A DNA stretch of 64,000 bases from an uncultured bacterium (GTDB lineage Bacteria; Muiribacteriota; UBA6191). The DNA lies in assembly GCA_964503595.1 (NCBI GenBank), contig CAZDAM010000003.1, positions 5,844 through 69,843 of the forward strand. Direction: 5' to 3'. Below are positions 12,831-51,700 of the stretch, in pieces; position 1 is the stretch's first letter; every line of letters begins with the position of its first letter. The notes beneath the pieces were generated by a model that saw only the letters and a program-made list of their open reading frames with translations, was not told where the DNA came from and did not search any database. The translations under genes were made by a program, and so were the position numbers.

Positions 12831-12918
12831 GAATGTCATGGTTCCGGTTTAGAGTTGAGAAGTATCCAAAAGATATAGGCTCCTGTCCAAGGCTTCCCGA
12901 AAATGCTAAGGTTCTGGC

Positions 12919-13380: not shown

Positions 13381-13401
13381 AATGCTAAAATTTCAGGAAG
13401 T

Positions 13402-13812: not shown

Positions 13813-13894
13813 ATCAGTACAGAGTTTAGCTTTTTGCCAACAATGTACTGACTGACCGGCTCTGGTCCGGTTCCTTATCGAAAATGAGTGGTTC

Positions 13895-14212
13895 ATGAAA
13901 AATTTTCTTCCCGTTCTTGTGATTGTTCTGGCTGGTTTTGCAGCCTGGTTTGTTCCCATGTCTTCGAGTGTGCAGGCTTCAGAGGTCTGTTCGGTTCATC
14001 ATGTTAAGGAGTGTCCTTTCTGCAATCAGGAGCTTGCCCTTAAAAAGGGGATCTGCAAAGAGCATAAAGCTGCTGGCAAGGATATTCCTGAAGCTCTTTG
14101 TTACCTGTGCAACAAGGAACTGAAAAAAGTCTTTATTCAGGAAAAGGACTGGTGCAAAGGCCATTCTGTTCCTGAATCCCAGTGTACGACCTGCCTGATT
14201 CACGGTCACTGA
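13895..14212 (+). CDS. Secreted Cys/His-rich small protein with three CxxC pairs (putative periplasmic metallochaperone)
   Basis: Signal peptide 'MKNFLPVLVIVLAGFAAWFVPMSSSVQA', then 'ECPFCN', 'CYLCN', 'CTTCLIHGH'. Immediately upstream of the RND adaptor gene. Confidence 0.5.
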   Translation: MKNFLPVLVIVLAGFAAWFVPMSSSVQASEVCSVHHVKECPFCNQELALKKGICKEHKAAGKDIPEALCYLCNKELKKVFIQEKDWCKGHSVPESQCTTCLIHGH

Positions 14213-15463: not shown

Positions 15464-15466
15464 ATT

Positions 15467-32506: not shown

Positions 32507-33331
32507 TCAGGGAACAGAAGGGACCAGTTTATGGATTTCCTCCTGAAGGATGCGCATTCCCCGGTTCCAGTCCTTATCGCAGTGAGCCGAGATATTGAGA
32601 CGGAAACAGTTGGCATGGCGGCCGGAGGTAGAGAAGACGGTGCCGGGAAGAATGAACACTCCCCGTTCGCTGAGTCTCCAGAAAAGAGCCTCGGCATCCA
32701 GATCCGGGACTTCCACCCACAAAAAGACTCCTCCGGAAGGCATGGTCATGCGGGAATTTCCCGGCAGTCGGGAGGGGAGATCCAGAAGGATTTCATCCAG
32801 GGCCAGATTCATGGCTTCCATGCAGCCGCTGGTGACGAGAATTTCCTCCGGGTTGATGGGAGTGCCGCCTTCCACCATGTGGGCGGCCAGAATGGTTCGA
32901 AGTTCGGTGAGACCGGCGACCGGGGCATAGGAGAGGAGACTTGGCTGAAGCATGGCCTCCCGGAGAAGATCGGCCAGGGTCTTCTGGGGCATCAGGCTGA
33001 GATGAAGGCTGGCGGAGCCCAGATCGAGCATATCGGGCTTGCGGAAAAACTCGGTGATGCCTTCATTTTTGGGTTCGGGACGGGTGGCAATCGGAGAGCT
33101 GGGTCTGTGTTCGGCCCGCCTGACGAAAAAGCCGGAGTGTTCACGGGTTTCGATTTTTCCGAGACTCTCCAGTTCGTAGTAGGCCTTGAGGATGGTGTTG
33201 CGGCTTACTCCCTGCTGATACATCAGATCCCTGACGGAGGGCATGCGGCTTCCGATGGGATAAACTCCCTGTTCGATGCCTTTCAAAAGCGTGGAGGCAA
33301 GGCGCTGCCAGGCAAAACCATCCGTTCCCAT
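32507..33331 (-). CDS. MocR-like GntR-family regulator with an internally deleted aminotransferase domain
   Basis: GntR wHTH 'SVRDLMYQQGVSRNTILKAYYELESLG'. An AAT-like N-part then joins directly to the C-terminal small domain 'GGVFLWVEVP...NCFRLN'. Only 274 aa against about 470 expected. Confidence 0.55.
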   Translation of the reverse strand: MGTDGFAWQRLASTLLKGIEQGVYPIGSRMPSVRDLMYQQGVSRNTILKAYYELESLGKIETREHSGFFVRRAEHRPSSPIATRPEPKNEGITEFFRKPDMLDLGSASLHLSLMPQKTLADLLREAMLQPSLLSYAPVAGLTELRTILAAHMVEGGTPINPEEILVTSGCMEAMNLALDEILLDLPSRLPGNSRMTMPSGGVFLWVEVPDLDAEALFWRLSERGVFILPGTVFSTSGRHANCFRLNISAHCDKDWNRGMRILQEEIHKLVPSVP

Positions 33332-34470
33332 CAGCCTCCCATGGCCAAAGCCAGAGTCTCAACCTGCTTTTTGGTGTTGAACATGTGAAAAGAGAGCCTC
33401 AGGTTTCCCTCGCGAACGCTGGCATCAATTCTTTCCTGCCTGAGTCTTTCTTCCAGAAGAGCGGATTCCATGTTTTTGAGCTTAAGGCAGACAATGGAAG
33501 ACTGTCCACTGGGCTCACAGACTTCGACATTGCCAGAGGGGACAATATCAAGAAAGTGCCGGACCAGAGCCATATTATGCTCTTCAATCTGTTTCAGGCC
33601 GATTTCAAGAAAGAGCTGAAGGCTTCCTTTCAGAAGGGCCATGGGAAGCATGTTCGGGGCCTGTCCGCGATCAAAGCGCCGGGCGCCGGGCAGGGATTCG
33701 GTGGTGTATTTCACCAGGCTGCCGACTTCCTTGCTGTTGGGGCTGGAAAGCCAGGAGGCATGGGTACGCCGAATCTGGTCCAGGGCGTTGGGAGAGAAGC
33801 GGGCAAAGGCATGACCATAGGGGCCGAGCATCCATTTATAGCTGACGCAGGCCAGAATATCGATCACTTCCAGCTCTTCCTTGCGGATCCCGCGTGAGCC
33901 CAGACACTGTGAGGCATCGACCAGAAACAGGATGCCCCGCTTCTTGAGCTCTCTGCCAAGTCCGACAATATCCAGGCAGGTTCCGGTATCAAAACGCACC
34001 AGACTCAGATCCACGAGTCTGGTCTGTGGTGGCAGGTTCTGGATAAGCTGGCCGATATCGGTGAAATCGGCGGGCTTCTGACGATGCAGGGTGAATCCCA
34101 GCTGCTCTTCATTGATCATCCAGGGCAGAATATTGGAAGGGTAGTCTCCTTCCATGACAACGATGGCATCGCCGGGCTGGTAGGTGATGCCGTTGACCAC
34201 ATGGGAGATGATTTCGGATACCGAGGTGGAATGGGCGACTTCATCGGCAGGACAGCCAATCACCTGGGCCAGAAGAGTCCGCATTTCTTCTGTCAGATCG
34301 ACCCAGGCCCGGTAAGGATAGCCGGAAGGATCCATTTCTCTTTCCAGAGCTTTCAGGGCCAGAGTTTTGGCACGGGCCGGAGAGGGGCCGAAGTAGGCGC
34401 TGTTAAAAAACAGGGTGGAGAGATGGGCAAATTCCTGCTGTACGGTCTCAGACTCCAGTGCGGCCATCAT
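33331..34470 (-). CDS. Aminotransferase class V-fold PLP-dependent enzyme (cysteine desulfurase/epimerase-like)
   Basis: 379 aa with class V fold blocks 'GDAIVVMEGDYPSN' and 'ILFLVDASQCLG'. Start/stop abuts the MocR-like gene. Confidence 0.6.
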   Translation of the reverse strand: MMAALESETVQQEFAHLSTLFFNSAYFGPSPARAKTLALKALEREMDPSGYPYRAWVDLTEEMRTLLAQVIGCPADEVAHSTSVSEIISHVVNGITYQPGDAIVVMEGDYPSNILPWMINEEQLGFTLHRQKPADFTDIGQLIQNLPPQTRLVDLSLVRFDTGTCLDIVGLGRELKKRGILFLVDASQCLGSRGIRKEELEVIDILACVSYKWMLGPYGHAFARFSPNALDQIRRTHASWLSSPNSKEVGSLVKYTTESLPGARRFDRGQAPNMLPMALLKGSLQLFLEIGLKQIEEHNMALVRHFLDIVPSGNVEVCEPSGQSSIVCLKLKNMESALLEERLRQERIDASVREGNLRLSFHMFNTKKQVETLALAMGG

Positions 34471-34817: not shown

Positions 34818-35747
34818 GTGTTTTCTTGCAAGCTGTGTGATGCTCATCAAGCAAAGATCTCTGAGCATAAAGATGCAAAAAGCGGCGAGATCCTGTCGAT
34901 CGCTTTTTGTCAGTCCTGTGGTTTGGTGCAACAGACCGAAATTGCCTCAGATGAAGCGCTAAAAATTTATTATTCACATCATTATCGAACGGATTACAAG
35001 AACACTTACAAGCCTAAACTTAGATACGTTTTTCGTGCAGGCAATGCGGCGTTGAAACGCCTGGAATTTCTGCAAAGAGTGATCTCGAAGCCAGAGGCGA
35101 AGTCGCTCATTGACATAGGTGCGGGTGGCGGCGAATTTGTCTATCTGGCCCAGAAGAGTGGATTCCTGGCGCGTGGGATAGAGCCGAATCAGGGTTATTC
35201 GGAATATGCGCGTGACGAATATGGTGCTCGCGTGGATACCCTTATGCTGGATACATTAGAAAACGCATCTGCAGATGTTGTTACGCTGTTTCATGTATTT
35301 GAGCATATGGCCAAGCCGCTAGAAACCATGCGTAAGATTTCAGACATCCTGACCAAGGATGGCTATCTCTTTATTGAAGTTCCGAATATTCTTCAGGCTG
35401 ATGCTTCGCCGCATAACATCTTCTTCAAGGCGCATTTGTTTTACTACAGTCGCTACACGCTTGAGGCTGCAGCTGCGCCGTTTTTTGAAACATTGTTGGT
35501 AGAGGATGGTGGCAACCTTAAGATGCTATTTCGAAAGAAGTCCGTTGCCTTGCCCGCAGTTGTGTCACAAAACTCTGAAGCGGTTATCCAGACACAGCTG
35601 CGACTACACCACAAGGGGTGGATTGAATACTTATTCAAAGCTGGAGGAGCTCTCAAGCTTTTCCGGAGAATTGTTCAGTCTCGACAGGAGAGCACTCTGG
35701 CGGATCCAAGTGCTAAAGCATTGCTTGACCGCTTATTTTTGCAATAG
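34818..35747 (+). CDS. Class I SAM-dependent methyltransferase with N-terminal zinc-ribbon (C-methyltransferase-like)
   Basis: 'CKLCDAHQ...CQSCG' Zn ribbon and 'LIDIGAGGGEF' motif I. The gene and its 350-nt upstream region are visibly lower in GC than the flanks. Confidence 0.65.
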   Translation: MFSCKLCDAHQAKISEHKDAKSGEILSIAFCQSCGLVQQTEIASDEALKIYYSHHYRTDYKNTYKPKLRYVFRAGNAALKRLEFLQRVISKPEAKSLIDIGAGGGEFVYLAQKSGFLARGIEPNQGYSEYARDEYGARVDTLMLDTLENASADVVTLFHVFEHMAKPLETMRKISDILTKDGYLFIEVPNILQADASPHNIFFKAHLFYYSRYTLEAAAAPFFETLLVEDGGNLKMLFRKKSVALPAVVSQNSEAVIQTQLRLHHKGWIEYLFKAGGALKLFRRIVQSRQESTLADPSAKALLDRLFLQ

Positions 35748-35791: not shown

Positions 35792-37753
35792 CTACCTCAA
35801 ACTGAAAGACATCATCTCGTTCAGGCTGAAGTCACGGTTGAGAACGCGCAGGCGGATGGAAGAAGTGCGGCTTTCAATCCGGCGCTGAATGAGATGCATG
35901 ATCAGGCGGGAGAGGCGGTTTCCCCAGGGGGTTTTGCAGGACCTGTGCAGGAAGTTCTGCAGAAACTGGGGGCAGTGTTTACGAAACAGGTCATCTTCAA
36001 GGCTTAGAACCAGTTTGACGCTTCCGGGCTGACCCTGGCGTGAAGTCCTTCCATAAAGCTGAAGATCAATCCGGCAGGATTCATATTTCTGGGTGGCCAC
36101 GACATGAAGTCCGCCAAGTTCCTCGACCTCGCGATCCACATGAATATCGGTACCCCGGCCCGCCATATTCGTGGCAATCGTAATGCCGCCGAGTTCTCCG
36201 GCCTTTGCCACAATCTGGGCTTCCTCTTCATGCTTCAGGGCATTTAAGATTGTGCAGGAGAGATCGGAGGCGGCGAGTTCATTGGCCAGCCATTCGCTTT
36301 CTTCTACGGAACGGGTTCCGACAAGAACGGGCTGGTTTTTGCGATGGACTTCGCGAATATGCTTGAGGATGAAGGACCATTTCTCATCAAGGGTGGCGCA
36401 GACGGTGACAGGTTCAAACTCGTAGGTCCGGGGAATGCGCTTGGGGATTTTCATGGTAGGCAGACGGTAGATCTGCCACAGTTCTTCCTGAAGATTCTGA
36501 AGGGTTCCGCTCATGCCTGAGAGGCGCTTGTACAGGCGGAAGTAGCGCTGAAAACTCATGCGGGTATGGGTTTCGGTTGGATCTGATAATTCGAGTTCTT
36601 CCTTGGCTTCAATGGCCTGATGAAGGCCTGAGCCCCAGTTGCGGTGTTCCATGATCCGGCCTGTTGCTTCATCGACAATCACGACTTTGCCTTCTTCATC
36701 AATCAGATACTGCTGGTTGAGGTGATAGAACTCACGGGCAGCCAGGGCCTGATGCACCAGAAACTGGCGTCTTTCCTTGGCTTTCCACATGGCGGGAAGG
36801 GGTCGTACCAGTTCATCCACAAAGCTTTCACCAGCTGGAGTCAGGCGAATGTCCTGGAATTTACGGTTGACGGTGTAGTGTTTGTCGGGTCGCATCTTGC
36901 GGGCGATTTCACAGGCAATCTGGCTGGCTTCCTTGAGAAGTTCGTTTTCTGAGGGGATGGAAATGATCAGCGGGGTGGTGGCCTCATCGGCCAGAACGCT
37001 GTCAGCCTCATCAATGATGGCGGTGTGAAGGCCGCGCATGACCATGGGTTTTGGGGGTCTTCCCTGAAGATTCCGGATTAGAGAACGGTCCCAGTCCAGA
37101 TCCTCCTGGCCCATCCGATCCCGTAGAAAGTCGGCCAGAAGCTCTTTGCTGGTGGTATAGACAATATCGCGGGAATAGGCTTCCTTTCTTTCCCGGGGGC
37201 TCATGGAGCCCGTAACAGAGGCTCCTCTTAGCTGGCAAAGAGAAAACAGGGGCTGCATGAGTTCGGCATCGCGGGAAGCCAGGTAATCATTTGAGGTGAC
37301 AACATGACAGGGAAGGCCGCTCCAGCCTGCCAGAACCGCCGTGATGCCGGCGACGATGGTTTTTCCTTCTCCCGGTTTCATTTCGATCAGGTAGCCATCA
37401 AACTGGGCCAGCACTCCCATGAGCTGAACTGGGTAGGGGCGCATTCCAAGAGAGCGAAAGGATGCTTCGGCCACCAGAGCCAGGGAGTCGGCCAGATTCT
37501 GTTCTTCCGGATTGGGATTTCCACGAAAGATCTTGCGCGCCGATCTGATTTTTTCCTGAAGCTCTTCGGGGGACAGATGGGCATGCTGAAGGGAAATCTG
37601 GTGGATGGCTTCGGCTTTTTTGCGAAAAACCCGCGGGCTTTTGCGCAGGCGGTGGATCAGGCGGAAAAAGGAATGAACCCAGGCATCAAGGCCCTCATAG
37701 GACTTTTTTTCCCTTGGGACGTGAAAGCGCTGGAATTCGGCGGAAAGATCCAT
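35792..37753 (-). CDS. SecA-like translocase ATPase paralog (motor domains only, lacks SecA C-terminal scaffold/wing/CTD)
   Basis: 'MKPGEGKT' Walker A, 'VVTSNDYLASRD', 'IIDEADSVLADEATTPLIIS', 'ATNMAGRGTDI' and 'GGLHVVATQKYESCRIDLQLYGRTSRQGQPGS...SLEDDLFR' are all canonical SecA blocks. Only 653 aa. Confidence 0.8.
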   Translation of the reverse strand: MDLSAEFQRFHVPREKKSYEGLDAWVHSFFRLIHRLRKSPRVFRKKAEAIHQISLQHAHLSPEELQEKIRSARKIFRGNPNPEEQNLADSLALVAEASFRSLGMRPYPVQLMGVLAQFDGYLIEMKPGEGKTIVAGITAVLAGWSGLPCHVVTSNDYLASRDAELMQPLFSLCQLRGASVTGSMSPRERKEAYSRDIVYTTSKELLADFLRDRMGQEDLDWDRSLIRNLQGRPPKPMVMRGLHTAIIDEADSVLADEATTPLIISIPSENELLKEASQIACEIARKMRPDKHYTVNRKFQDIRLTPAGESFVDELVRPLPAMWKAKERRQFLVHQALAAREFYHLNQQYLIDEEGKVVIVDEATGRIMEHRNWGSGLHQAIEAKEELELSDPTETHTRMSFQRYFRLYKRLSGMSGTLQNLQEELWQIYRLPTMKIPKRIPRTYEFEPVTVCATLDEKWSFILKHIREVHRKNQPVLVGTRSVEESEWLANELAASDLSCTILNALKHEEEAQIVAKAGELGGITIATNMAGRGTDIHVDREVEELGGLHVVATQKYESCRIDLQLYGRTSRQGQPGSVKLVLSLEDDLFRKHCPQFLQNFLHRSCKTPWGNRLSRLIMHLIQRRIESRTSSIRLRVLNRDFSLNEMMSFSLR

Positions 37754-37757: not shown

Positions 37758-39902
37758 TCAGAATTGGTAGCGCTTCTGAAGAAGCTGTTTCAGAAAGAGC
37801 ATGAATTGACCCATCACGGAGGAATCCGCCAGCTCGATACGGATTTCCCCGGTGCGCCCGTGCAGGGTTTTGAGGTTCTCGTGAGGATGGAAGACGGCCC
37901 TGGCTTCAAAGAAGGATTCCTGGGTCTTGAGCCCGTCTTCTCTTTCCACGGCAATATCACCGCCACCGTACCAGCCCAGAGCCATGGAGGGAAGTTCATC
38001 CTTTTCATGGGGAATAACAGTAAACTGGGTGACGGGCAGGGTGATTTCGGACTGCCCCCTGAATTTGAGGCTGGCCTGGGGCTCTTTGAGTTCGAACAGG
38101 TCGTAGGCGTTTTCCTGGGAAACAACGGCCACGAATTCAAGATCCTGAGACGGAAGGATGGCCCCGAGTTCGGCTCCAGCCTTGGCCCAGGTGCCGAGGT
38201 AGCGACGTAGATCCGGGGCAATCCAGGTGCCATTGGTTTTGGCCCGCACGGTAAGTTTGTCCCTGCGATCCTTTAGAAGATCCAGCTTGCGGCCGAGAAA
38301 GGCAATGCGTTCGGAGATGGGCTTCAAATCGGCAACCCGGTTTTCGCGGGCCTTGATTTCAAGCGCTTTGGATTCCTGAATCTGGGCCCCTACCAGCAGA
38401 ATTTCCACGTCCAGATCCGGGTTTTCCAGGCGGGCCAGAATCTGATCCGTCTGAACCACGCTGCCACTGGGGGCAATGATTTCCTTAAGAATACCGGGGG
38501 TCTGATTGTGGATGCGGGTGTAGTCACGAGCATGGATAACACCGGGAGCCCGGATGGAATTGGACATGGGGACATAGAAGAGGAGTCCGATCAGAAGGGA
38601 GATGGTCAGAATGGCGAGGCTTACGGCCCTGAGCCGGACCATTTCCAGGGCCGGATCAAAAAACAGGTAATGTATGAGGTTGTAAACAGGCTTGAGGAGC
38701 CAGGTCCAGGCGGAGATGGCCACGATGATCAGACCGACTTCAAACCACTGGTCCAGAACAAACAGGGCAATCCCGGCAGAAAGCAGAACCCGGTACGCCT
38801 GGGAGGCGAAGCCATAGGAAAGGAGCCAGAAGGACTCGGTGGCACTTGAGGCGGCTCTTTCGATATCCGGCATTCCCAGGATTTTACTTTCCAGAATATA
38901 GCGCCATTCCTCGCGGGATCTCTGGGCCAGATTCGGAATTTCGAGAACATCAGAGAGGATGTAATAGGAATCCAGACGGGTCAGGGGATTTCCATTGAAA
39001 AGAAGGCTTGAAACGGAACCGATGAACATCAGGTTGAAGGCCAGGCTGTTGATGACTCCGGGGCCGGTATGAGACCAGACAATCGTGGCCAGAGCAGCAA
39101 TGAAGAGTTCGACAATCATGCCGGCGGCACCAACCAGGGCTCTTTGCCAGCGGTTTCGGAAGGCCCAGCTTGAAGTGGCATCCATATAGGGCAGGGGAGT
39201 CAGAATCAGAAACATGACCCCCATGGTGTGAACTTCCCCCCCGAAGCGGCGGGTAGCCATGGCATGACCCATTTCATGCAAAAACTTCAGTCCGGCCAGA
39301 CAGATGTAAAGCAGAAAGATATTGGATGGGGCAAGGACTCCCTGGCCACTCTGATAAAGGGCCTGGGGGTTTTCCAGGGCGTACCAGAACCCGGTGAAAA
39401 CCACTAGGGCCCAAACCAGAAACCCTCCCCTGGAGAAAATCATTCTGGTGACATTGTCGTAGCGGACAAGCCAGGTGTGGGGATCCCACAGGGGCATGCG
39501 AAAGAACAGGAAGGACTGGATCTTGCTGGTCAGCTCCTTCTGTTTGGTGCGGGAATAGCGCTCAAAAACGGCCTCTGTATCCGGGGAGTTTTCCACATAA
39601 AGCAGGTTTGAGAGATGAAGCTGGGAGAGGAGACGGATGACGGCGTCCTGGGATGGGGTGTCATCCGGGTTTTCCCGGAGGGATTCTTCCCAGAGATCAT
39701 GCACGGTGGATTTGGGGTTCAGGCGCATGACAAAGCGGTAGGCCTCAGGAGAGAGGCGAAAAAAGCGGGAATTGAAGGGGTCTCTTAAGACGTAGCACAT
39801 TTCCCCACGAAAGAACTGTTTGTGGCTTTGGATGGCGCTGTGAATTCCGGCCCGAAGTTCGGCAACCCGATACCAGGATTCACTGAATAGATTCCCGATC
39901 AT
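37758..39902 (-). CDS. Fusion protein: polytopic M50 (site-2-protease-like) zinc metalloprotease domain plus C-terminal HlyD-like periplasmic adaptor
   Basis: 'HEMGHAM' HExxH sits inside a hydrophobic segment with multiple TMs. The C-terminal 300 aa has biotin-lipoyl-like 'VQTDQILARLENPDLDVEIL', a coiled coil and a beta-barrel. A 4-nt gap to the neighbouring genes. Confidence 0.7.
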   Translation of the reverse strand: MIGNLFSESWYRVAELRAGIHSAIQSHKQFFRGEMCYVLRDPFNSRFFRLSPEAYRFVMRLNPKSTVHDLWEESLRENPDDTPSQDAVIRLLSQLHLSNLLYVENSPDTEAVFERYSRTKQKELTSKIQSFLFFRMPLWDPHTWLVRYDNVTRMIFSRGGFLVWALVVFTGFWYALENPQALYQSGQGVLAPSNIFLLYICLAGLKFLHEMGHAMATRRFGGEVHTMGVMFLILTPLPYMDATSSWAFRNRWQRALVGAAGMIVELFIAALATIVWSHTGPGVINSLAFNLMFIGSVSSLLFNGNPLTRLDSYYILSDVLEIPNLAQRSREEWRYILESKILGMPDIERAASSATESFWLLSYGFASQAYRVLLSAGIALFVLDQWFEVGLIIVAISAWTWLLKPVYNLIHYLFFDPALEMVRLRAVSLAILTISLLIGLLFYVPMSNSIRAPGVIHARDYTRIHNQTPGILKEIIAPSGSVVQTDQILARLENPDLDVEILLVGAQIQESKALEIKARENRVADLKPISERIAFLGRKLDLLKDRRDKLTVRAKTNGTWIAPDLRRYLGTWAKAGAELGAILPSQDLEFVAVVSQENAYDLFELKEPQASLKFRGQSEITLPVTQFTVIPHEKDELPSMALGWYGGGDIAVEREDGLKTQESFFEARAVFHPHENLKTLHGRTGEIRIELADSSVMGQFMLFLKQLLQKRYQF

Positions 39903-39905: not shown

Positions 39906-41753
39906 CTACCACCAGAGGTACAGACGCATGGTGTCCGTAATGCGGTGAAACAGAATCCAGCCGACACTGCGTCTTCCGGCCTTGATGCGGGCCAGGCCGC
40001 TCATGCCGGGTCGCCACCAGCTTTCCGGGCTCTCTACGAACCGGGCCTTCAGTTCGAAGGTGTTCCCGCTTCTGGGGTCTACTCTGGCAACAGGGACCAG
40101 GGTTTCGATTTCAAAGGGGTATTTCATCTGGGGATTGCTCAGAAGAGCCATTTCTCCCTGTCCGGGAACGGTAATCTCATCAATATCTCTTTCGGGAACC
40201 TTCAGGATGAGATACATGGCCTCAGGCTGGGCAATCTGGTACAGAAGATCGCCTTTGTTGATGGGGGCGCCCATCAGCTTTTCCTTTTCCCCCTCAACAA
40301 TGACTCCATCCTGAGGGGCCTTGAGATCGGCCCTGTTCAGGTAGAACCGGACCCGTTCCAGCTCGGCTTTGGCCTGAGCCAGACGGGCTTCGGAGATATT
40401 CATGTCTGCGAGTCGGCCATCGGCACGGGCCTTCTGGGTTTCCCTCTCATAGCGGGTGACTTCGGCCTGGGCTTCGGTGATTTTGAGATGGATTTCCTCG
40501 GTGTCGATCTGAATCAGGGTCTGGCCTTTGGTGACGGTATCCCCGCTATGGGCCAGTACATTCAGAATCACTCCGTCCATGGGGGAGGAAATGTAGGAAA
40601 TCAGATCGGTTTTGAGTTCGGCTCCGACTTCCACATCATAGTCCCAGGTGCCAAAAGTCAGAAACAGAACAGAGGCGAATCCAATCAGGGCCAGGAGCTT
40701 GGCAAAGGAGTTCTCCGGGCCCAGAAGCCACTGAACCTTGTCCTTCAGATAGTTTTTGAGGCGCTCGCCAGCCCATTGATCGTCGGCATGAAGGCGGGCC
40801 AGAACCGGGGCGCTTTGATTGGCAATCAGTCTCAAGGCCATGATTTCCTGGGGGTGGAACCGGCTTGAGGCCTTTTCAATGGTCAGAACTCCGGCGGGCT
40901 CATCCCTGAATCTTAGGGGGAGGCTGATCACCTGAAAGGCACCGCACTGGGACAGAAACTGCTGGTGGGCAGTCTGAATGGTTCCGGGATCCTCATGTCC
41001 GGGGCAGAGGATCTCTTCGTTCTGATCCAGGCTCTCTTCCATGGCATTGGCCAGACGGACACAGGCTTCGGTCTGGGAGTCAAAGCGCTCGAGATGGCTG
41101 ATGGCCTGAATTTTGATATAGGGGTTCTCATGCCAGCCAAGGCTGACCCGGGATACCTGAAACCGGGAGCAGAGATCGTTGACCAGGCTCATGGAGGCCA
41201 GCTGAAACCGCTCGGCCTTCAGAAGCTGGCTGATGACTTCAAGGGAAGAACCGATCATGCCCTGTTCGCGGGTTTCCCCTGTGTCAGGCAGATTTTCCTC
41301 ACTGATCATGGCCAGCAGTCTGGTGCGGATCAGGAGCTCATTCAGGGCTCTTGAGGGCAGGGGGCCCAGAGCCAGAATGATCAGGTGAGGGGTCTGGGAA
41401 CGTTGAGTTTCGTAGGCGATCACGTTCTGAAGTTCGGGAACTTCGGTGCGGATTTTTTCCAGGGCACAGCCTTTTTCCCTCACCCTGGGCAGCATATCCC
41501 GTCCCGATTCGGCGAGCTGTTCCATGAGGGAATTGGCGTGTTCCTTCGGGTTGAATACGGCATCGACCTGAATCTGCTCTGGGCCGGGAGAAAGAATCAG
41601 TCCGGTGTCAGCGCTACAGATTCCACATACGATTCGCAGATAATCGGACCAGAATGCCTCACTTTTTGGCATCTGGCGCAGGGTTTGAAGTTCTGAAAAA
41701 TACTGGGTCTGGTTCATGGGGAACTCGATTCTTCCGGTTCCGAATTTTCTCAT
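39906..41753 (-). CDS. HlyD-family membrane fusion protein with a roughly 330-aa cytoplasmic N-terminal (GAF-like?) domain
   Basis: Single TM 'LLALIGFASVLFLTFGTW'. Then 'GDTVTKGQTLIQIDTEEIHLKITEAQAEV' lipoyl-like, a coiled coil, and a C-terminal beta-barrel 'ARIKAGRRSVGWILF'. Confidence 0.65.
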   Translation of the reverse strand: MRKFGTGRIEFPMNQTQYFSELQTLRQMPKSEAFWSDYLRIVCGICSADTGLILSPGPEQIQVDAVFNPKEHANSLMEQLAESGRDMLPRVREKGCALEKIRTEVPELQNVIAYETQRSQTPHLIILALGPLPSRALNELLIRTRLLAMISEENLPDTGETREQGMIGSSLEVISQLLKAERFQLASMSLVNDLCSRFQVSRVSLGWHENPYIKIQAISHLERFDSQTEACVRLANAMEESLDQNEEILCPGHEDPGTIQTAHQQFLSQCGAFQVISLPLRFRDEPAGVLTIEKASSRFHPQEIMALRLIANQSAPVLARLHADDQWAGERLKNYLKDKVQWLLGPENSFAKLLALIGFASVLFLTFGTWDYDVEVGAELKTDLISYISSPMDGVILNVLAHSGDTVTKGQTLIQIDTEEIHLKITEAQAEVTRYERETQKARADGRLADMNISEARLAQAKAELERVRFYLNRADLKAPQDGVIVEGEKEKLMGAPINKGDLLYQIAQPEAMYLILKVPERDIDEITVPGQGEMALLSNPQMKYPFEIETLVPVARVDPRSGNTFELKARFVESPESWWRPGMSGLARIKAGRRSVGWILFHRITDTMRLYLWW

Positions 41754-41910: not shown

Positions 41911-42660
41911 ATGTTTAAAAAGATTGTGCCGATCACTAAAGATGCCCATAAGAAAACAAAGATCAAAGCGTTGGCAAATTTCGAGTTTGCGAAGGACGTC
42001 AACCTTGCGGCCGTGATGGTCCATGAGTTTTCCCGTGCGGCAGCGACTTACCCGATTGTGTTTCTGGAAGACAAGGAAAAGGACCAGTTCCGTCCTACGG
42101 TTCTTCTGGGCCTTGAGCAGGGCGAAAACCTGTTTGTGAAGGAAGGAAAGTGGGAGGCTTCGTACATCCCGGCCATCATCCGCCGCTATCCTTTTGCCCT
42201 GGCAAATACAAACGAAGCGGATAAGTACACAATCTGCCTCGATGAAGGCAGCGATCTGGTTAATGATAAAGACGGCCAGGAGCTTTTCGACGGCAAGGGC
42301 GAACCAAGTGAGCTGATGGAGCGCGTGAAGCGCTATCTGGGCGAGCTTCAGCAGATGGAGCGTTTCACTCAGGAGTTCTGTGCAGCGATGTCCCATCTGA
42401 ACATGTTCACTCCCCTGAATATGAAAGTGCGCCTTGGCAATGAAATCAAAAACATCAATGGGGCCTATGTCATCAATGAAGAGCGCCTGGGCTCTCTTTC
42501 GGATGAAAAATTCATCGAGCTTCGCAAGAAGCAATACATTCCGGTGATTTACTCCCACCTGAGCAGTCTGTCCCAGATTGAGCGTCTTCTGACCTTCAAG
42601 GACAAGAAGGGTGGAGTGACTCCAGATGCCATCGAACAGTTCTCGGAGACCGTGAATTGA
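41911..42660 (+). CDS. SapC family protein
   Basis: About 250 aa with 'YPIVFL' and 'PAIIRRYPF' blocks, which I recognise as the SapC family (named from the Campylobacter fetus S-layer secretion locus). Divergent from the HlyD/SecA-like operon. Confidence 0.6.
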   Translation: MFKKIVPITKDAHKKTKIKALANFEFAKDVNLAAVMVHEFSRAAATYPIVFLEDKEKDQFRPTVLLGLEQGENLFVKEGKWEASYIPAIIRRYPFALANTNEADKYTICLDEGSDLVNDKDGQELFDGKGEPSELMERVKRYLGELQQMERFTQEFCAAMSHLNMFTPLNMKVRLGNEIKNINGAYVINEERLGSLSDEKFIELRKKQYIPVIYSHLSSLSQIERLLTFKDKKGGVTPDAIEQFSETVN

Positions 42661-42680: not shown

Positions 42681-42739
42681 CCTCCGCCGTGCCAGGCGGA
42701 GGAATGAAAACAATCGGGATTCCGCTACAGGTGTAGCGG
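42681..42739 (+). other. Two tandem GC-rich hairpins between sapC and the giant gene (possible attenuator/terminator)
   Basis: cctccgcc-gtgcca-ggcggagg (8-bp stem) and ccgctac-aggt-gtagcgg (7-bp stem) followed by a T-rich tract. Confidence 0.4.
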
Positions 42740-42788
42740 GGTCCCTTTGGTGTTTCTTGGCAATTTTCGAAAAACGCAGGAAAAACTT

Positions 42789-45700
42789 ATGAGCTCAAAA
42801 ATGAAAAGCCTTGTCAGAACCCAGACCTACATGAAAGCACGCCGCTTTTTTCAGAAATTTACGAAGAAGAAGGAGGCCGCTCCTCAGGTGCTTGATGGCA
42901 GACGGGAACGCTTCCGTCTGGACAGCCTTGAAGAGAGAGTTCTGCTTTCAGCAGATCCGGTTACGGAGACGGCTCATGCGATTTTGCACGAACCTCAGAA
43001 GAACGAGTCCCGAATTGAGCTTTTAAGTGAGGCTTCCCTGCGTCAGCCTACCCTAAGCCTTCAGGAACAGCACCCTCAGGCCGCAATTGTTCTGGATGCC
43101 GGCACGCTTTCCCAGAACAGAAATTCCCTGGAATCCTCCCTTGTGATCGGCGAGAACGAAGTTCTTGGCGGCAGTGGAAATCTGGGCATTCACCTGATGA
43201 ATGATGGCACCGTTGCTCCCGGATATTCTCCCGGAGTTCAGAATGTAGCCAGCTTCACCCAGGCCGAAGGTGCGACCCTTGAAATCGAAATCGGGGGCAG
43301 TGGGGTTGCCGGGGCCTCCGATGGTTTTGATCAGCTCAATGTCTCCGGTCTGGCAAGCCTTGGTGGCAAGCTTGAAGTCACCCTTCTGAATGACTACAAA
43401 CCTCAGGTCGGAGACACTTTCGACATCCTTACCTTTGGCTCGGTGAGCGGAGAATTTGATTCGGTAGGCGGTCTTTACGGATTTTATGCAGATTATTACT
43501 TCGATGTGGTGCAAAAATCCGATCGCATTCAGCTGGTCGTCAAGGAGCTTTTGCCCGGAGATACCTTCGAGATTGCCGCTGACGAGGCCTTTCGAGATGC
43601 CATGTCGGAGTTTCTGGCTCAGGATTATCTCAAGAAGCCGACTTCCATTACCTTTACCGGCTCCATTGATCTTGGAGATGCCTTTTCGGTTGGAGGCACC
43701 TTTACCCTGAATCAGGTCAGCACCGGTCAGGATGTCACTTTAAGTGATGGGTCCACAGTCAATGTTTCGATCAAGACTCTGGGGATGCGGGGCGCTTCAG
43801 CTTCTTTGGGTGGAAGCTTCGGCCTTCAGTTCGGCGGAGCTGATCTGGGAATTGCCATTTTTGATGCAACTTCCGAAGAAGATGGCCGCAGTTGGGTTGG
43901 AGCCCAGGGAAGTCTGGAAAGCGTTTCTCTTTTGAATCTTGGAAGCTACGGCATCCAGGGAGAAAACCTTCAGCTTGACATCTTCCAGGCCCTGGGAGAA
44001 GACAATGATGTTTTAATCGATTTGTCGGAAACCCCGTTGAGTATTTCTGATGGCAGTGGAACACTGGCTGAATTCTCCAATGACGGAGTTTTTGGGGAGT
44101 ATCTGAACGTGGCTGGAAATCTCCAGCTCACCATGCCTTTTTTGAATGTCTCCGGAGATTTCTTTGTCTCCGCGGATGATGCCTCCCTGTTTCTGGCCGG
44201 AGAAAATGTCACCGCTAGCTTTGAAGCCGGAGGCATGACTCTGGGTGTAAACAATGCCCGCTTTGGGGCCTACATTTTTGAAGATCAGAGCATGGTTCTG
44301 GAAGCAACCGGTGGCCTTGTCATGAGTGGAGGCGATTTCACGCTTCCTACTGGCGATTCTGTGAGCCTCAAATACAACACCACTGGCATCGAATTCACCG
44401 ATCTGGAAATGGCGATTGGGGAGAGATCCTTCACTTTTGGAACCATCGAAGCTTCCGAAGAACTCCTGGAATTGAGCATCAGTGGCTTTGAAGCCAACCT
44501 GGGCGGAGTGTTCGGGCTGTCCGGAGACTTCGGTTTCCGCAAAAACGGGGAAGATCTGAATGTGGTGGCTCAGAATGCTGCCGTAAGCCTGAATGCTGGC
44601 GGCTTCAAGGCTGGAGTGAAAGACGCCACCCTGGGTCTGAAAATGAGCGATCTGGGAACCGCCATGGAAGCAACCGGCGCGGCCTGGTTTGAGCTTGGAG
44701 ATGCAGTTTCCCTGAGTGCTGACAGTGTCCAGGTGCTCTATAACGAAACCGGAGAAGACCTGATTGGAACCAGTCTCTCGGCTGCTTCTCTGGAATATAC
44801 CTTTACAGCAATTGAGGGTTCGACGACCCTTCAGCAAGTGGCTGTAAGTGGGGCCAGCCTGGAAGTGGCCGGCTTTGTGCAGGCCAGCGGTAATCTTGCC
44901 GTCAAGCGGGATGAAGTTGCTCTGGAGCTTTCGGATGAGTCCCTGGTTCTGGCCGAGCTTTTGACCATTGGTGGCAAGAATGTAAGCGCCTTTGCCGGCC
45001 TGAATGGTGGCTCTTCCTCCGCTTTGGGCCTTCAGATCAGCGCCCTGACTTTCGGGGTCGCCCTGATGAGCGAAATCGATGGTGAGGAGAGAAGCTGGAC
45101 AGCCGTCTACGGGGAAGCCGAATCCGCCGGATTTGTCGGTCCAGACAGCCTCACGATTTCTGCCAGTGCCCTGAAACTCGAACTGAATCTGGCCTCAGAA
45201 GACGGCCTGGTAGTGGATTTCTCGGAATTCAGTCACAGCGTTCCCGTTGGTGTGGGCGAAAGCCTCAGCCTTACGATGGACGCTCAGCGGGGCGAACTGA
45301 TCAGTGTCAGTGGCAACCTGAACATCCGCATCTTTGATTTCTTCGCCGTCTCCGGAGGCTTTGCCCTGGAAAAATCCACAGAAACTCTGAGGCTTTCGGA
45401 TGAAAGCGAAGTGGAAGTGGAGCTTCTGACTCTGGGAACCCAGGGAGTCTCGGCTTTTGCCGGTCTGAATCATGGCAGTGACAATGCCTTTGGTTTCTCT
45501 TTGGGAGATGTGAGCCTGGCTTTGGTCATGGCCACAGAAAAAGAGGATTCCTCCCAGTCCTATGTGAGCCTGAAAGCTCAGGCTGGCAGCGTAGCCTTTG
45601 AAGGAATCCCCGGAATCACCATTGCCGCAGATACCCTGGCCGTGGAACTGAACCTGGCATCAACAGAAGGTCTTTTGGTGGACTACTCCACCAAAGCCCT

Positions 45701-48700
45701 TACCGTACCCACGAGTTCTTCCACCAATATGAGCCTCACTATGGATTCCGAGGATGGCGAGCTGGTACGCGCTTCCGGAAATATGGATCTGGATCTCTTC
45801 GGCTTTGTGCAGGTTTCCGGGGGCTTTGGTTTTGAAAAGAAAACTGAAGTGGTGACTCTGGCTGATGGCAGCGAAGCCGAAGTCGATCTGATGACACTGG
45901 GGGCAAATGATGTCTCCGCATTCGCCGGAATCGCAGCTTCAAGCTCAAGTCGGGTGGGCCTTGCCTTAAGCGGACTGAATTTCGGTCTGGCCCTGATGTC
46001 CGATAAAAGCCGGGATGATCGCTCCTGGCTGGCCCTGAAAGGAAATGTAGGGGCTGCCAGTTTTGAGGGAATTCCTGGAATGGAGCTGGCCGCAGAATCC
46101 CTCAAGCTTGAAATCAACCGCTATACCGGAGAAGAAGGCGCATCCACAACCGAAACGATTGTGGAAACCTCCACGGAAACGGTCACGACGGAAAATACTC
46201 AAACCACCACAACAACAACCAAAACCGACACGATCTACAAACTGGATCTGAATGGGGTTGTGGCTCCGATTACTTTGAAACTGGGCGGAGAAACAGCCAC
46301 GATTCAGGTAAGCAAAGGGGCCGATTCGGATTCATTGCTGACCTCGATCAGGCAGGCTCTGGAAGGTTTTGCTGCCATTGGCGAAGGCAATGTTACCGTA
46401 AGTGGCAATCTGGTGGCGGGCTTTGAAATCCGCTTTCTGGGCGATCTGGCGGGAACTTCGGTGGAAGGCCTGAGTGTTGAGACCAGCTTCTTTGAAGTTT
46501 CCACAAACAGCTCGGAAACAAAGAATGCTCTGGTGGGCCGAAGTGAAAGCCAGACTCTGACTATTTCCAATCCAACCCTCAAGGGTTCGGGACGCTACAC
46601 CTTAAGTCTGGATGGCAAGAGCACCGGCGAAATCCGTTTTGCCGGATCCGATGTGGGCAACAATGCCCGCTATATCCGTGAGGCTCTGGAAAAAGTTTCC
46701 GGTATTGGAGCGGGTAATGTGAAGGTGGTCTACGACCAGAACTCCTCCACAACCAGCCAGCGCTATATCATCACCTTCAAAAAAGGTCTGGCCTACACCG
46801 ATATCAGCCTGCTTCAGGCCAATAACAATGGTTTGAAGAATGCGATTGTGGCCGTGACTCCGGGGCAGGATGGTTCCGTTGCCAGAGGAGAAACCAACCG
46901 GGTTTCCATCAATACCCTCGGCGATGTGGATCTGAACCTGCGCTTCACGATCAACGGCAAGGAATACCGCACGGATTATTTTGAGTCTGACTCTTCCGCC
47001 GACAAAGTGAAGTTCATGATTGAGCGGGAAGTCTACAGGGATGATATTGAAGTCCAGGTGACCGAGATCGCCAAAGGCACCTGGGACATCACCTTTGGAG
47101 GGGCTGCAACTGGGGTTTCCCTGGATGATTTTCTGGTGAATACATCGCAAAGCATTGAGTCTGCCAAGCTTCTGGTTTCCCAGATGGGTAAGACGGATGT
47201 AGAGACGGAGACGACGACTACCAGCAGCACGGAAACCATTGAGGTGGAAGAGACCACGGTTCTGGAATATCCGGCAGATGTGGTGGTGGACTTCTCTGAG
47301 AGCAATCTTGATGTTCTCACCGGACCCGACGCGACCATTGGGATTGATTTTGACGGAGATCTTGGAAATCTCCTGAGAGCTTCCGGAAATCTGAATATCA
47401 ATCTGTTCAATTTCTTCTCGGCATCCGGGGCTTTTGCTCTGGAAAAGTATGCCAGCGAAGTGACCCTGGATGATGGAAGCACCCTGGAAGTGGATATGCT
47501 CACCATCGGCGGGCATGGAATTGATGCTTTCGCGGGCCTTAACGGAGGAAGCCCTTCCCGTGTTGGCTTTGAGCTCGAGGCTGCTGATTTTGCCCTGGCG
47601 ATTATGACTGGCGTGGAAGACCCGGCTCTTCAATACACCAGCCTTCATGCCAGTGCCGGAAGTGCGGCTTTTGTTGGCTTTGACAATCTCAGAATTGCGG
47701 CAACCGACATCGAGATCCAGATCAATCAGGCTGATGAATACGGCTTTGTCGTGGACTGGCTGAAATCTCCTCTGGCCCTGACGACTGGCCCTGATTCTTC
47801 CACAGAAATGAATATGGATGGCTCGCGTGGAGAGCTTCTGAGCCTGTCGGCCAATATGGAAATCGATGTGGCCGGATTCTTCATGGTCAACGGACGCCTG
47901 GCCTTTGAAAAGTATGAATCCGTTGTGAAGCTTTCGGATGGCAAGGAAGCCGCAGTCAATCTGATGACGATTGGCGGCAAGAATCTCAATGCCTTTGCCG
48001 GAGTCAACGGAGGCAGTTCCGATCGGATGGGGATTGCCATCGACAATACGGAATTCGCCCTGGCCATGCTTCAGGAAAAAGGCGAAGGAGGCCGTAGCTG
48101 GACTTCTTTGAAAGCAACGTCTGATTACGCTGGCCTGGTGGGCCTTGATGGAATTCTGACGCTGAACGGGCAGGGCATTGCCGTCAATATCAATGACAGT
48201 GCTGAGGATGGCACGGTTGTGATGTATGGCGAAGAGGGCATGGCCATTCGGACCAGCGCGGATACCTCGCTGATTCTTGATATGAACCACCCAGGCAAGA
48301 TCATGCGGGCTGAAATCTATCGGGCTACTCTGGATATTGGTGGTTTCATCCAGATTCTGGGTGGAATCTATTTTGAGAAGGCCGAAAACGTCGAAGTGGA
48401 TGTTCGTACCGGCCTGCCGCTGGACTTGAGTGCCAATACTGGTTTGAGCTCCATCAGCTCGGATCTGCAACGTCTTAAGAATGATGGAATTCTGAGTGAG
48501 GACAATCAGACTCTGACCAATCTGAAGGTGGATTCCCTGACTTTTGGAGCCGGAGACGTTGATGTCTTCGTTGGCTACGGCCCTTATTTTGTGGATTCCA
48601 ACAATGATGGTGTCATCGATAGTCATGACACCCCCAACGAGGATGCATTCGGGTTTTCCCTGGAAAATATCGATGTTGGCTTTGTCACCATGCAGGCGGC

Positions 48701-51700
48701 CAAATCGGTGGATCCGAACGGCGTCATTCCCAAGATGTTTGCCCTGAAGGCGTTCTGGGCGGATCCGCTTGATATTGACTGGGGTTTCTTCAAATTTGAT
48801 ATCGATAATCTGATAGTTGAAGCGAACCAGGGTTCCAAGTGGAAGGGCACCCAGGCCACTCCATTCATTGATTTTGCCTCAAGCTTTGAAAACGGCTATG
48901 CCATTCCGACCCCAGGCGGCGATTCGGACATCGTTCTGGATTACAGCTCCTCCGTGATCGGAGCGTCTTTTGGACATACGCTTCTATCGATTGAGAATTT
49001 CTTCACGATTGAAGGTTCCTTCGCATTCTACAAATACGGTGGCATCACCGTTGATATCGCTACCGGACTTCCCGGAACCCTGCCTACCGGAACTGACGGA
49101 AATACCCGTACCGGTCTTCAGCAGCTGAAGAGTGCGGGCTATCTCTCGGATGACAATTCCCGCATCATGGCAATGCCGATGAATGTGATCACCATTGGTG
49201 GAGATCAGGTCAATATCTATGTGGGCGATGTGGATGATCCATTGCTCTCCTTCACCGACATTGATTTTGGAATTGCCCTTTATACCGCTGATAAGGGAAT
49301 TGATACCAAAGGGATCATTCCCCGCATGTATTCCATGCGCGCTTCCATTCCGGATGCCGTTGATATCGACTGGGGCTTTTTGCAGCTTGAAGTCAAGGAT
49401 CTGGTCCTAAAGGCCAATTCCGGAAGCCAGTGGAAGGGCCTGACCGGTCTGAAGCCCTATGTGGATTACACCACAAGTTTTGAAGAAGGCTTTGCCATTC
49501 AAACCGGAAATGAGCCCGTTATTCTTGATTATAACCGTGGCTTTTTGGGCGTGGAAATGGGTTATGCCCTGGTGAATATCGGGGACTTCCTGTTTCTGAA
49601 CGGCTCCTTCAATCTGGAAAAGACCGACAACGTTGCGATCGATATCGTAACCGGATATACCTCATCTTCCTTCTGGACCGCTCCTTCCAAGGTTCAGGCC
49701 GGTCTTCAGAAGATGGGTGGATTGTCTTCGGACAAAACCCGCATTGAAGATATGACGATGTCCGGCTTTGTTCTGGGCGGGGACAGTGTCAATGCCTTCA
49801 TTGGAATGGGTCCTTACTTTGAGGACACCAACGGGGATGGCCGGATCAATTCGGATGATGTCAGAAATGATGGTGCCATTGGCTTTGCCGTGGACAATCT
49901 TGATATTGGTCTGTCCATTTTCAAAAGCATCAAGGCTCTGGATCCGGACAAGGTCCTGCCGACATTCTATGCCCTGAAAGCCAGTGTGGATGCGATCGGT
50001 CTGGTTGGAATCGATTTCTTTGAACTCTCAGCCGAGGGCGTGACCCTCAAGGCCAATTCCGCGAGCAAGTACAAAGGTGCCCAGGTCAGTCCCTGGATTG
50101 ACTTCACTCAGAATTATCCTGATGGATTTGAAGTTTCCAAGGGCAACGGGGAATCCGTCTTCCTGGACTTCAGGGATCCGATTCTGGGGATCAATGTTGA
50201 ACGGGCCACCTTCATCATTGATAAATTCATTCATATCCAGGGAGCCTTCTCCTTTGAGCAGGGAGCCCGTCACCGTGTCAGTGTCGATACGGGAGTGAAT
50301 ACCTTCACAGGCTCTGCTCTGGCGGGCACTCTTGCCCAGCTGGAGCTCAAAACCGATGCTGAGGTCTCTTCCGACTGGACCCGGATTGAAAACCTGGAAG
50401 TGATTTCCACCACGATTGCCCTGAGTGATGTGGATGTTTTCGTAGGCTTCGGGGAACCTGATTTTGATCAGGACTTCAAAGAGCAGGACGATCTTTTCGG
50501 CTTTGGTATCAAGGACGTGGATCTGGCCATCGGCATGTTCAAGATTGCTGCCGACGTCAAAAACTTCCCGACTTTCATGGCCCTTTATGGGGCATCCAGC
50601 CAGTTTGAACTGTTCACCGGTCTTGATTTCTTTGAGTTCTCAGGGGAAGCCCTTCAGATCGAGCTGAACAAGGGAACCAAGTGGAAGGGCTCCGTTGCAG
50701 CTCCGACCATCAATTTCAAGGACAGTTTCCTGCCAGTTGGTGATAAGCCGGCTGGAATGGAGACGGTTGCCGGAACCGAAAGTTTCTACCTAGATTTTGC
50801 CGGTCCGGTCATTGGAGTCCAGGTCTTTGATGCTGTCATGAGAATTGACGGCTTTTTGCACATCGCTGGTGATTTTGCCTTCCGCAAGGAAACCACCAGG
50901 CAGACCATTAAAACGACTCTGGGATCCTATGAGGATGTAAACCTTGAGGCCATGAGCATTGCGGCCAATGATGCCTACCTGTTTGCCGGTCTGAGCTATT
51001 ACGATTTCTCTTCCGGGGAAATGGAGACTCTGGTCGGGGTTGAACTGGAGAATGTGAATGTCGGAATCGGTATGTTCAAGCCGACTCTGGACAATTCTCC
51101 CCTGATTACATCCCAGAAATTCCAGTTCACCACGGTCAAAGCCCATGCCGATCGGGCGGCCCTGGTAGGAATTGAAGATCTTCTGACTGTGGATCTTCGT
51201 GATATCACGATTGAAGCCAATCTTGGCAAAGGCAGCAATCCACTTCTGAAGCCTTTCATTGATTTCTCGGAAGATCCCTATGTGATTGAAGTTGGTGGAG
51301 AAGAAGTCGTCTTTGATTATGACAACAGCTGGCTTCTGGCATCTGTTGGTCTGGCCCATCTTCAGCTTTCCCAGTTTCTTTACCTGCATGGCTCTCTTGC
51401 TATCAGCAAAGCTGGAGCCCGTGAAGTCAAGGTCAATGCCGGGGAGTTCTCCTCTCTTCTGGGTGGAGATACGGTGACCCAGAGTGTTGAAACCATCACC
51501 ATCGGCGGACAGGATCTTTACGGTTTTGCCGGAATCGGCGGACCTTACCGCGAGGATTCCAACGGGGATGGTGTGATTGATGATCAGGACGGGGTCAATG
51601 ACTCTGCTCTTGGGGTCAGTCTGGAGGATGTGGATTTTGGGGTTGCCGTGATGACAACGGTTCTTCCCGGAGGCCTTCCTGCCAAGGGTCTGCCGACCTA

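Follow-up and report, generated by a model that had tools for sequence, protein, structure and literature searches.

A predicted RRE–M50–adaptor fusion protein as candidate leader peptidase of a putative SecA-linked export cassette for very large LEPR-XLL proteins

Introduction

The window is a 64,000-nucleotide stretch of contig CAZDAM010000003.1 from an uncultured bacterium, and the gene under study lies on its minus strand at 37758..39902. It encodes a 714-residue fusion protein that consists of a RiPP (peptide made by the ribosome and then post-translationally modified) recognition element (RRE), an M50 site-2 protease (S2P) core, three further transmembrane (TM) helices, and a periplasmic adaptor of the membrane fusion protein (MFP) type, in that order. 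The gene is part of a conserved cassette that includes a truncated SecA-like ATPase, and this cassette frequently lies beside open reading frames (ORFs) that begin with a LEPR-XLL motif. It is proposed here, with a probability of roughly 55%, that the cassette exports very large LEPR-XLL-led proteins and that the fusion protein serves as its inner-membrane core and leader peptidase. The proposal is built on the observed domain architecture, the conservation of the catalytic motifs, the gene order, the adjacency of LEPR-XLL ORFs, and homology to known leader peptidases.

Little is understood of how bacteria carry polypeptides many thousands of residues long through two membranes. In classical type I secretion systems (T1SS) the signal is C-terminal, so the entire chain has to be made before export begins. 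By our own reasoning, an N-terminal signal would let export start before a chain of 7,000–13,000 residues is complete, which a C-terminal T1SS signal cannot. The family described here suggests such an alternative, in which the leader is N-terminal, a SecA-type motor threads the chain, and the leader peptidase is fused to a periplasmic adaptor. If this is true, RiPP-style leader recognition extends to giant proteins, and the 'secondary SecA' puzzle of 2015 becomes testable through a substrate motif, defined catalytic residues, and cultivated hosts. The module itself has already been described computationally; what appears to be new is the reading of the fusion protein as a leader peptidase that acts on LEPR-XLL giants.

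Domain Architecture of the Fusion Protein

The fusion gene is a single ORF with an ATG start and no internal stops, and the closest public relatives of its product are 714–719 residues long and collinear with it end to end. It is therefore one gene, and the concern that a hidden stop might separate two genes is refuted. The central claim of an earlier note on this DNA, that an M50/S2P-like domain and an HlyD-type adaptor occupy one protein, is fully supported by the Pfam M50 match, the invariant motifs, and fold matches. The AlphaFold (AF2) model has a mean confidence score (pLDDT) of 79. A sequence search with the whole protein against the PDB returned zero matches at E ≤ 1. Among NCBIfam models, the best match is daptide_HExxH with 155.5 bits over residues 45–397 (equivalog cut-off 300), followed more weakly by the YydH/LiaK model (E 1e-5), and homologs carry the source label 'putative peptide zinc metalloprotease'.

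The M50 core spans residues ~150–345 (38868..39455, minus strand) and contains TM1–TM4 with a re-entrant beta hairpin at residues 227–240. Pfam Peptidase_M50 matches with 33.4 bits, above the gathering cut-off of 27.2, which identifies the HExxH segment as M50-related. The catalytic and zinc-binding motif HEMGH (residues 209–213; 39264..39278, minus strand) lies at the predicted cytoplasmic end of TM2, a helix spanning residues 192–219, and the protein has about seven TM helices in all, in agreement with the earlier description of 'HEMGHAM' in a hydrophobic helix among further TM segments. The second M50 motif was found as NGNPLTRLD (residues 303–311; 38970..38996, minus strand), directly after helix 283–303 and in a stretch of low pLDDT, with D311 as the putative third zinc ligand.

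Both motifs are highly conserved. In an alignment of the fusion protein with 31 homologs of 43–53% identity, residues H209, E210, H213, N303, N305, P306, L307, and D311 are invariant in all 32 sequences. Across 82 other loci, every complete ortholog carries HExxH (78 of 78) and nearly every one carries NxNPxxxD (76 of 78). A lone HExxH would occur by chance in a protein of this length with a probability of ~9% (rough own estimate), and chance cannot account for the two invariant motifs taken together with the Pfam score and the match in fold. Because HExxH and NxNPLxxxD are conserved, the enzyme is likely to be active, as far as sequence can indicate.

Hydropathy and the AlphaFold model place the helices at residues ~158–177, 192–219, 251–278, 283–303, 354–385, 387–415, and 423–442. 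The last three (residues ~354–443; 38574..38843, minus strand) follow the S2P core and would return the chain to the periplasmic side. Loops predicted to be inside carry 5, 6, and 2 Lys plus Arg residues and loops predicted to be outside carry 0, 0, and 0, which by the positive-inside rule indicates an N-in/C-out topology. Since seven TM helices lie between the two terminal domains, the RRE would be cytoplasmic if the adaptor is periplasmic. The HExxH and NPLxxLD motifs sit at the inner ends of outside-to-inside helices, so the active site is predicted to face the cytoplasm beside the RRE. Hydropathy, the AlphaFold model, and the loop charges thus agree, at the level of prediction, on the cytoplasmic placement of HExxH that the earlier note had left to be checked.

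The first ~100 residues form a PqqD-like RRE (residues ~15–100; 39603..39860, minus strand; predicted cytoplasmic), a domain that had been overlooked. It adopts the three-stranded sheet and three-helix winged-helix fold of this class and, by analogy, would bind a leader peptide. In fold comparisons it scores 9.3 against TfuB1, a lasso peptide RRE with bound leader, 8.8 against the RRE TbiB1, and 8.5 against PqqD, which has an RRE-type fold. The protease core is similar in fold to solved S2Ps, with scores of 8.0 for Methanocaldococcus jannaschii S2P, 7.6 for SpoIVFB, and 6.1 / 5.1 for RseP. Foldseek also ranks RREs and S2Ps at the top, with non-significant E-values. Pfam PqqD matches 8 of 32 homologs.

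By sequence comparison, the N-terminal two-thirds of the fusion protein share homology with RRE-dependent leader peptidases of the intramembrane type, daptide MpaP among them, a kinship that had likewise been missed. Daptide clusters encode MpaP, an RRE fused to an intramembrane S2P and termed an 'RRE-dependent intramembrane peptidase', to which its authors assign leader removal; the daptide leader motif ELExMEAP occupies positions −8 to −1 (bioRxiv 10.1101/2023.03.08.531785). The window protein is a homolog and not a member of the daptide proteases because its 155.5 bits fall below the equivalog cut-off of 300. Membership in the daptide intramembrane metalloprotease family (NF041824) was rejected on this score and on its operon partners, which are GAF-HlyD and SecA-like proteins and not daptide enzymes.

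The C-terminal adaptor domain (residues ~445–714; 37761..38570, minus strand) has the MFP layout of a lipoyl domain, an alpha-hairpin, and a beta-barrel that had been read from the sequence alone. In the AlphaFold model, residues 445–714 form strands, a helical hairpin at residues 495–548, and a barrel, and Foldseek against the PDB matches adaptors, including MacA (E 2e-12) and also MexA, AcrA, and CusB (E range 2e-12 to 1e-9). Sequence scores are below cut-off, at 15.3 bits versus 30 for HlyD_D23 (E 0.013) and 25.8 versus 94.9 for RND_mfp. Since these curated thresholds are not reached, membership of the adaptor class rests on fold. HlyD/lipoyl Pfam families match 12–19 of the 32 aligned family members at E ≤ 0.01, and the domain aligns with the adaptor region of the neighboring GAF-HlyD protein (BLASTP E 2e-5). 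On the modeled structure, the adaptor assignment is sound.

The Putative Export Cassette and Its Distribution

The fusion gene is flanked on the same strand by two genes at gaps of only 3–4 nt. Directly upstream, after a 3-nt gap, is a 615-residue GAF-HlyD protein (39906..41753, minus strand) with Pfam GAF, HlyD_D23, and HlyD_3 matches above cut-off and a single TM helix at residues ~350–368. Downstream, after a 4-nt gap, is a 653-residue truncated SecA-like ATPase (35792..37753, minus strand) that matches Pfam SecA_DEAD, SecA_PP_bind, and P-loop_SecA. This arrangement is the co-located trio of truncated SecA, GAF/HlyD, and Peptidase_M50/HlyD genes that defines the module of Kamneva et al. 2015.

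The SecA-like protein aligns to Bacillus subtilis SecA over residues 18–604 only. It retains the DEAD motor with nucleotide-binding domain (NBD) 1, the preprotein cross-linking domain (PPXD), and NBD2, and from the extent of the alignment it lacks the wing domain, the two-helix finger, and the C-terminal tail. Assignment as a canonical SecA or accessory SecA2 was rejected, as scores of 341–522 bits are below all NCBIfam SecA/SecA2 cut-offs of 725–1493. Its lone hydrophobic window (residues 133–151) sits inside the ATPase-domain match at residues 41–426, and no convincing TM helix was found.

The M50-HlyD fusion is not unique to the window; it represents a very large family whose module has been known since 2015. 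With one genome per species scanned, relatives of the fusion protein occur in at least 578 genomes from groups including Desulfobacterota, Verrucomicrobiota, Planctomycetota, Beta- and Gammaproteobacteria, Campylobacterota, Spirochaetota, Chlorobi, and Fibrobacter. Cultivated carriers include Methylobacterium extorquens AM1 (META1p2399-2402), Pseudomaricurvus alkylphenolicus KCTC 32386 (L003), and Thiomicrospira microaerophila ASL8-2 (L029). At E ≤ 1e-30, a library-wide search returned 4,033 clusters defined at 50% identity, and collinearity holds to ~31% identity.

For gene-order analysis, 83 loci were annotated with an in-house ORF and phmmer pipeline, comprising 80 from the species scan, 2 others, and the window. 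The order outer-membrane efflux protein (OEP), short HlyD, GAF-HlyD, M50-HlyD, and SecA-like is nearly universal. GAF-HlyD, M50-HlyD, and SecA-like genes occur together in 69 of the 83 loci and all five genes in 48, and most loci with an incomplete cassette are contig ends. Five contigs with precomputed Pfam annotation show an identical gene order. A candidate TolC-type partner is encoded as an OEP gene within the cassette in at least 48 of the 83 loci; none was found in the window, and in this genome the genes for the OEP and the short HlyD may be located past the giant gene described below. In one locus, L083, the SecA-like gene (12154-14145) is called in two pieces of 352 and 292 residues, a split that could be a frameshift, an assembly error, or genuine.

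Canonical type I secretion was considered and rejected, as no ATP-binding cassette (ABC) gene is present in the cassette, either in the window or in the other inspected loci. The sole ABC protein found in the window (3923..5680) lies ~30 kb from the cassette.

LEPR-XLL Proteins Beside the Cassette

The putative substrate in the window is a giant ORF of more than 7,000 residues on the plus strand (42789..64000; open frame 42708..63998) that runs off the window. Near its start it carries the LEPR-XLL leader-like motif FRLDSLEERVLLSAD (42912..42956, plus strand), which NCBIfam NF012209 'LEPR-XLL' matches with 26.9 bits against a cut-off of 17. A Pfam search over ~7,000 residues of this ORF and over other LEPR-XLL proteins gave one RTX repeat match and nothing else.

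There are two candidate starts. The ATG at 42789 places a 46-residue basic extension ahead of the LEPR motif. An in-frame GTG at 42888, 11 nt after the sequence AAGGAGG (42870-42876), leaves 12 residues before LEER, the same pre-motif length as in the shortest family members. Because the GTG fits the family better, the basic stretch may be untranslated, although this is uncertain. The earlier note had pointed to the basic N-terminus of the giant as the stretch to test for cleavage. The conserved part, however, is LEPR-XLL, and the basic stretch is possibly upstream of the real start. Many long ORFs, of up to 674 residues, run opposite the giant gene on the minus strand of 43000-63000; they have an odd composition and no family matches and almost certainly represent its non-coding shadows.

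Similar ORFs are found next to cassettes elsewhere. A strict pattern, LE.R[..][LMV][LMF]S, run on 1.10 M residues of six-frame ORFs from the loci gave 23 matches versus ~0.4 expected by chance (a rough own estimate from amino-acid frequencies), and 21 of the 23 lie no further in than residue 150, in ORFs that are 300 or more residues long. A hidden Markov model (HMM) built from these matches, used to count LEPR ORFs, detects one beside the cassette in 24 of the 74 loci whose flank is at least 1 kb long, and 21 of 25 LEPR ORFs start within 520 bp of the cassette. The consensus is F-x-L-E-x-L-E-P-R-[VIL]-L-L-S-[AG]-D, in which conservation extends to positions outside the strict pattern (F 18/21, L 14/21, E 20/21, A/G 20/21, D 14/21). 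The motif usually lies 12–20 residues past the start codon, with no hydrophobic signal peptide after it.

Where genes next to cassettes have been called, they encode proteins of 13,222, 8,208, 8,652, 4,886, and 3,524 residues, and most LEPR ORFs run off their locus at lengths of 700 to more than 2,600 residues. Public calls of the 8,652- and 3,524-residue neighbors start at a Met within LEPRIMLSGD (L083 14442-14591; L084 14524-14673), and the real N-terminus of both (...PPNSFELESLEPR...) lies upstream, behind a non-ATG start. Since public calls start inside the motif, LEPR-XLL leaders are probably under-annotated in databases. Two small complete LEPR ORFs by cassettes were also observed, with 264 residues (L032 14321-15112) and 455 residues (L037 3847-5211). 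Because these carry the LEPR leader, the putative substrates are not exclusively giant.

Proposed Mechanism and Alternative Explanations

The scheme proposed here is conjectural with respect to leader binding, cleavage and its position, the direction in which the chain moves, what serves as inner-membrane channel, and stoichiometry. The cassette would resemble a T1SS that lacks an ABC protein, with a TolC-like OEP, a short MFP, a GAF-MFP, the RRE-M50-MFP fusion, and a truncated SecA ATPase. In the cytoplasm, the RRE would capture the leader F-x-L-E-x-L-E-P-R, a role suggested by the similarity of LExLEPR to daptide LExMEAP. The M50 zinc site at the cytoplasmic face would then remove the leader at or just after LEPR, a cut position predicted by analogy with the daptide leader, which ends at P(−1). 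The SecA-like motor would feed the chain N-to-C, possibly during translation, and the C-terminal adaptor together with the two other adaptor proteins would form a periplasmic duct to the outer-membrane channel. Export-coupled cleavage of the giant's N-terminus, as suggested in the earlier note, is consistent with all findings and plausible. The bolder form of this proposal, that the cassette constitutes a distinct Gram-negative secretion pathway, in which a SecA-powered TolC/adaptor duct with an RRE-read LEPR-XLL leader and a built-in protease exports 3,000–13,000 residues N-to-C in one, possibly co-translational step, is tentative and somewhat less probable than not.

Several observations weigh against the leader-peptidase proposal. 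Nothing in the cassette is obviously a channel that would conduct protein through the inner membrane, and the LEPR leader, in contrast to classical S2P substrates, does not form a TM helix. The daptide_HExxH score of 155 is below the equivalog cut-off of 300, and the resemblance to the daptide leader spans only 7–8 residues. The pLDDT is below 50 at residues 304–323, around D311, and with such low model confidence the geometry of the zinc site is uncertain. The OEP and short HlyD genes were not found within the 64-kb window. Two-thirds of the loci with visible flanks have no adjacent LEPR ORF, so the linkage of cassette and LEPR ORF is frequent but not obligatory in cis. Finally, a literature search found only the comparative 2015 work on the module and no experimental study.

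An alternative, and essentially the proposal of Kamneva et al. 2015 (PMC4452313), is that the M50 domain is mainly structural. The seven-TM bundle, oligomerized through its adaptor, would be the conduit that replaces the ABC membrane domains, and proteolysis would be incidental or directed at another target. The cassette indeed encodes no other polytopic membrane protein, as GAF-HlyD has one TM helix and the SecA-like protein none that is convincing, and the S2P core is followed by three additional TM helices. Every catalytic residue and zinc ligand is nonetheless strictly invariant in more than 70 orthologs, down to ~36% identity, which is unexpected for a scaffold, and the fused RRE suggests recognition of a peptide for an enzymatic step, as proposed for MpaP. 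S2P folds, moreover, have a cytoplasm-facing cavity and no through-pore. A purely structural role is thus unlikely, and pore and protease roles of the M50 domain are mutually compatible.

Two further explanations would dissociate the protease from the giant proteins. In the case of RiPP or bacteriocin maturation and export, a small unannotated precursor would be cleaved, the adaptor would aid its export, and the giants would be unrelated neighbors. The nearest named relatives are RiPP leader peptidases (daptide_HExxH, 155 bits; YydH/LiaK, E 1e-5), the label 'putative peptide zinc metalloprotease' points the same way, and two cassette-side LEPR ORFs encode only 264 and 455 residues. Tailoring enzymes (radical SAM, YcaO, and others) are absent, however, from the window operon and from the Pfam-annotated genes of the five contexts, the sole conserved leader-like motif found sits on large ORFs (3,524–8,652 residues where called), and a SecA-type motor with three adaptors would be disproportionate for a small peptide, which makes this explanation improbable. 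A signaling protease of the RseP/SpoIVFB type, cleaving a membrane regulator such as GAF-HlyD and thereby controlling the expression or assembly of secretion genes, would fit the M50 membership, the fold similarity to RseP and SpoIVFB, and the one-TM GAF sensor protein that nearly always lies directly upstream. Such a role is very improbable, as the five Pfam-annotated contexts have no sigma or anti-sigma genes beside the cassette, the PDZ and CBS domains of RseP and SpoIVFB are absent and an RRE is present instead, and a signaling cascade would give no reason for a fused periplasmic adaptor.

Other Genes in the Window

A SapC-family protein of 249 residues (Pfam SapC, 246 bits) is encoded divergently at 41911..42660 on the plus strand. 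This gene occupies the side on which OEP and short HlyD genes precede GAF-HlyD elsewhere. SapC adjoins the cassette in 11 of the 83 loci (the window, L003, L018, L031, L033, L034, L040, L041, L045, L047, and L066), usually directly upstream of OEP. In a 2026 preprint, the giant Chlorochromatium proteins Cag_663 and Cag_665 likewise have SapC and TolC as neighbors. A strong terminator-like hairpin with a 13-bp stem and a T-rich tail (42716..42745, plus strand) lies between SapC and the giant gene. A promoter scan of the locus gave a match count no higher than in shuffled sequence.

A lipid A biosynthesis cluster at 1962-7850 comprises LpxI, two LpxB-like genes, an acyltransferase, and an MsbA-like ABC protein, and a resistance-nodulation-division (RND) pump of the ordinary kind, with adaptor and AcrB, lies at 14225-18511; these genes show that the source is a diderm. 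The LpxB family is unusually duplicated, with genes at 2790..3926 and 5671..6840.

Beyond the SecA-like gene are a class-V aminotransferase (33331..34470, minus strand) and a GntR/aminotransferase fragment (32507..33331, minus strand), and an S-adenosylmethionine (SAM) methyltransferase (34818..35747, plus strand) lies near the same gene. The L083 cassette is also near an aminotransferase. Although daptide clusters pair an RRE-M50 peptidase with both kinds of enzyme, these neighbors are probably coincidental.

Comparison with Known Systems

The closest precedent is the comparative study of Kamneva, Poudel & Ward (PLoS One 2015; PMC4452313), which describes 'secondary SecA_DEAD' proteins in a conserved T1SS-related neighborhood with GAF/HlyD, Peptidase_M50/HlyD, HlyD/Biotin_lipoyl, and sometimes OEP proteins. 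The authors propose SecA_DEAD as the ATPase that replaces the ABC transporter and suggest that the M50 protein might be a membrane pore. The three window genes belong to these clusters, with agreement in gene families and neighborhood, and the phyla overlap (Verrucomicrobia, Planctomycetes, Proteobacteria, Nitrospirae, and Chlorobi). The window differs in having a SapC gene and in lacking genes for an OEP and a short HlyD. The paper is purely comparative, its text contains neither 'giant' nor 'SapC', and it was not among the papers found to contain 'LEPR-XLL'; its passages on the module cast M50 as a possible pore and not as a leader peptidase and do not mention an RRE.

In the literature searched, no link of the cassette to LEPR-XLL giant proteins and no description of its RRE was found, and 'LEPR-XLL' receives only passing mention. 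An Omnitrophota giant-gene preprint was set aside as a different arrangement, in which SecA domains lie inside the giant proteins themselves.

MpaP/DapP is the most similar enzyme, with homology over the RRE and M50 core in the same RRE-then-M50 order and a paired leader motif, ELExMEAP, that resembles LExLEPR. It differs in lacking an adaptor fusion and in acting on precursors with ~24-residue cores alongside ABC transporters and tailoring enzymes, whereas the window cassette has a SecA-like partner ATPase and putative substrates that run to thousands of residues. Compared with the classical S2Ps RseP, SpoIVFB, and M. jannaschii S2P, the fusion protein lacks PDZ and CBS domains and gains an RRE and an adaptor, and its presumed substrate is a soluble leader instead of the type-II TM anchor of a regulator.

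Peptidase-containing ABC transporters (PCATs) that work with HlyD-type adaptors, such as bacteriocin and colicin V exporters, likewise have a leader peptidase built into the export machine. In PCATs, a cytoplasmic C39 cysteine protease that recognizes a double-glycine leader is fused to the ABC pump. The logic proposed here is the same, in that a short N-terminal leader would be cut as the cargo exits through an adaptor/TolC route. The window system differs from PCATs in its zinc-dependent intramembrane protease fused to the adaptor, its different leader, and the lack of an ABC protein in the cassette.

With tripartite pumps and classical T1SS (MacA, AcrA, MexA, HlyD, and HlyBD-TolC), the system shares the adaptor fold, and its cassette usually encodes a TolC-family OEP. 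The cassette motor, by contrast, is SecA-derived and not of the ABC, RND, or major facilitator superfamily (MFS) type, and each cassette encodes three adaptor-type proteins. Classical T1SS signals are C-terminal, whereas the putative signal of the cassette is N-terminal.

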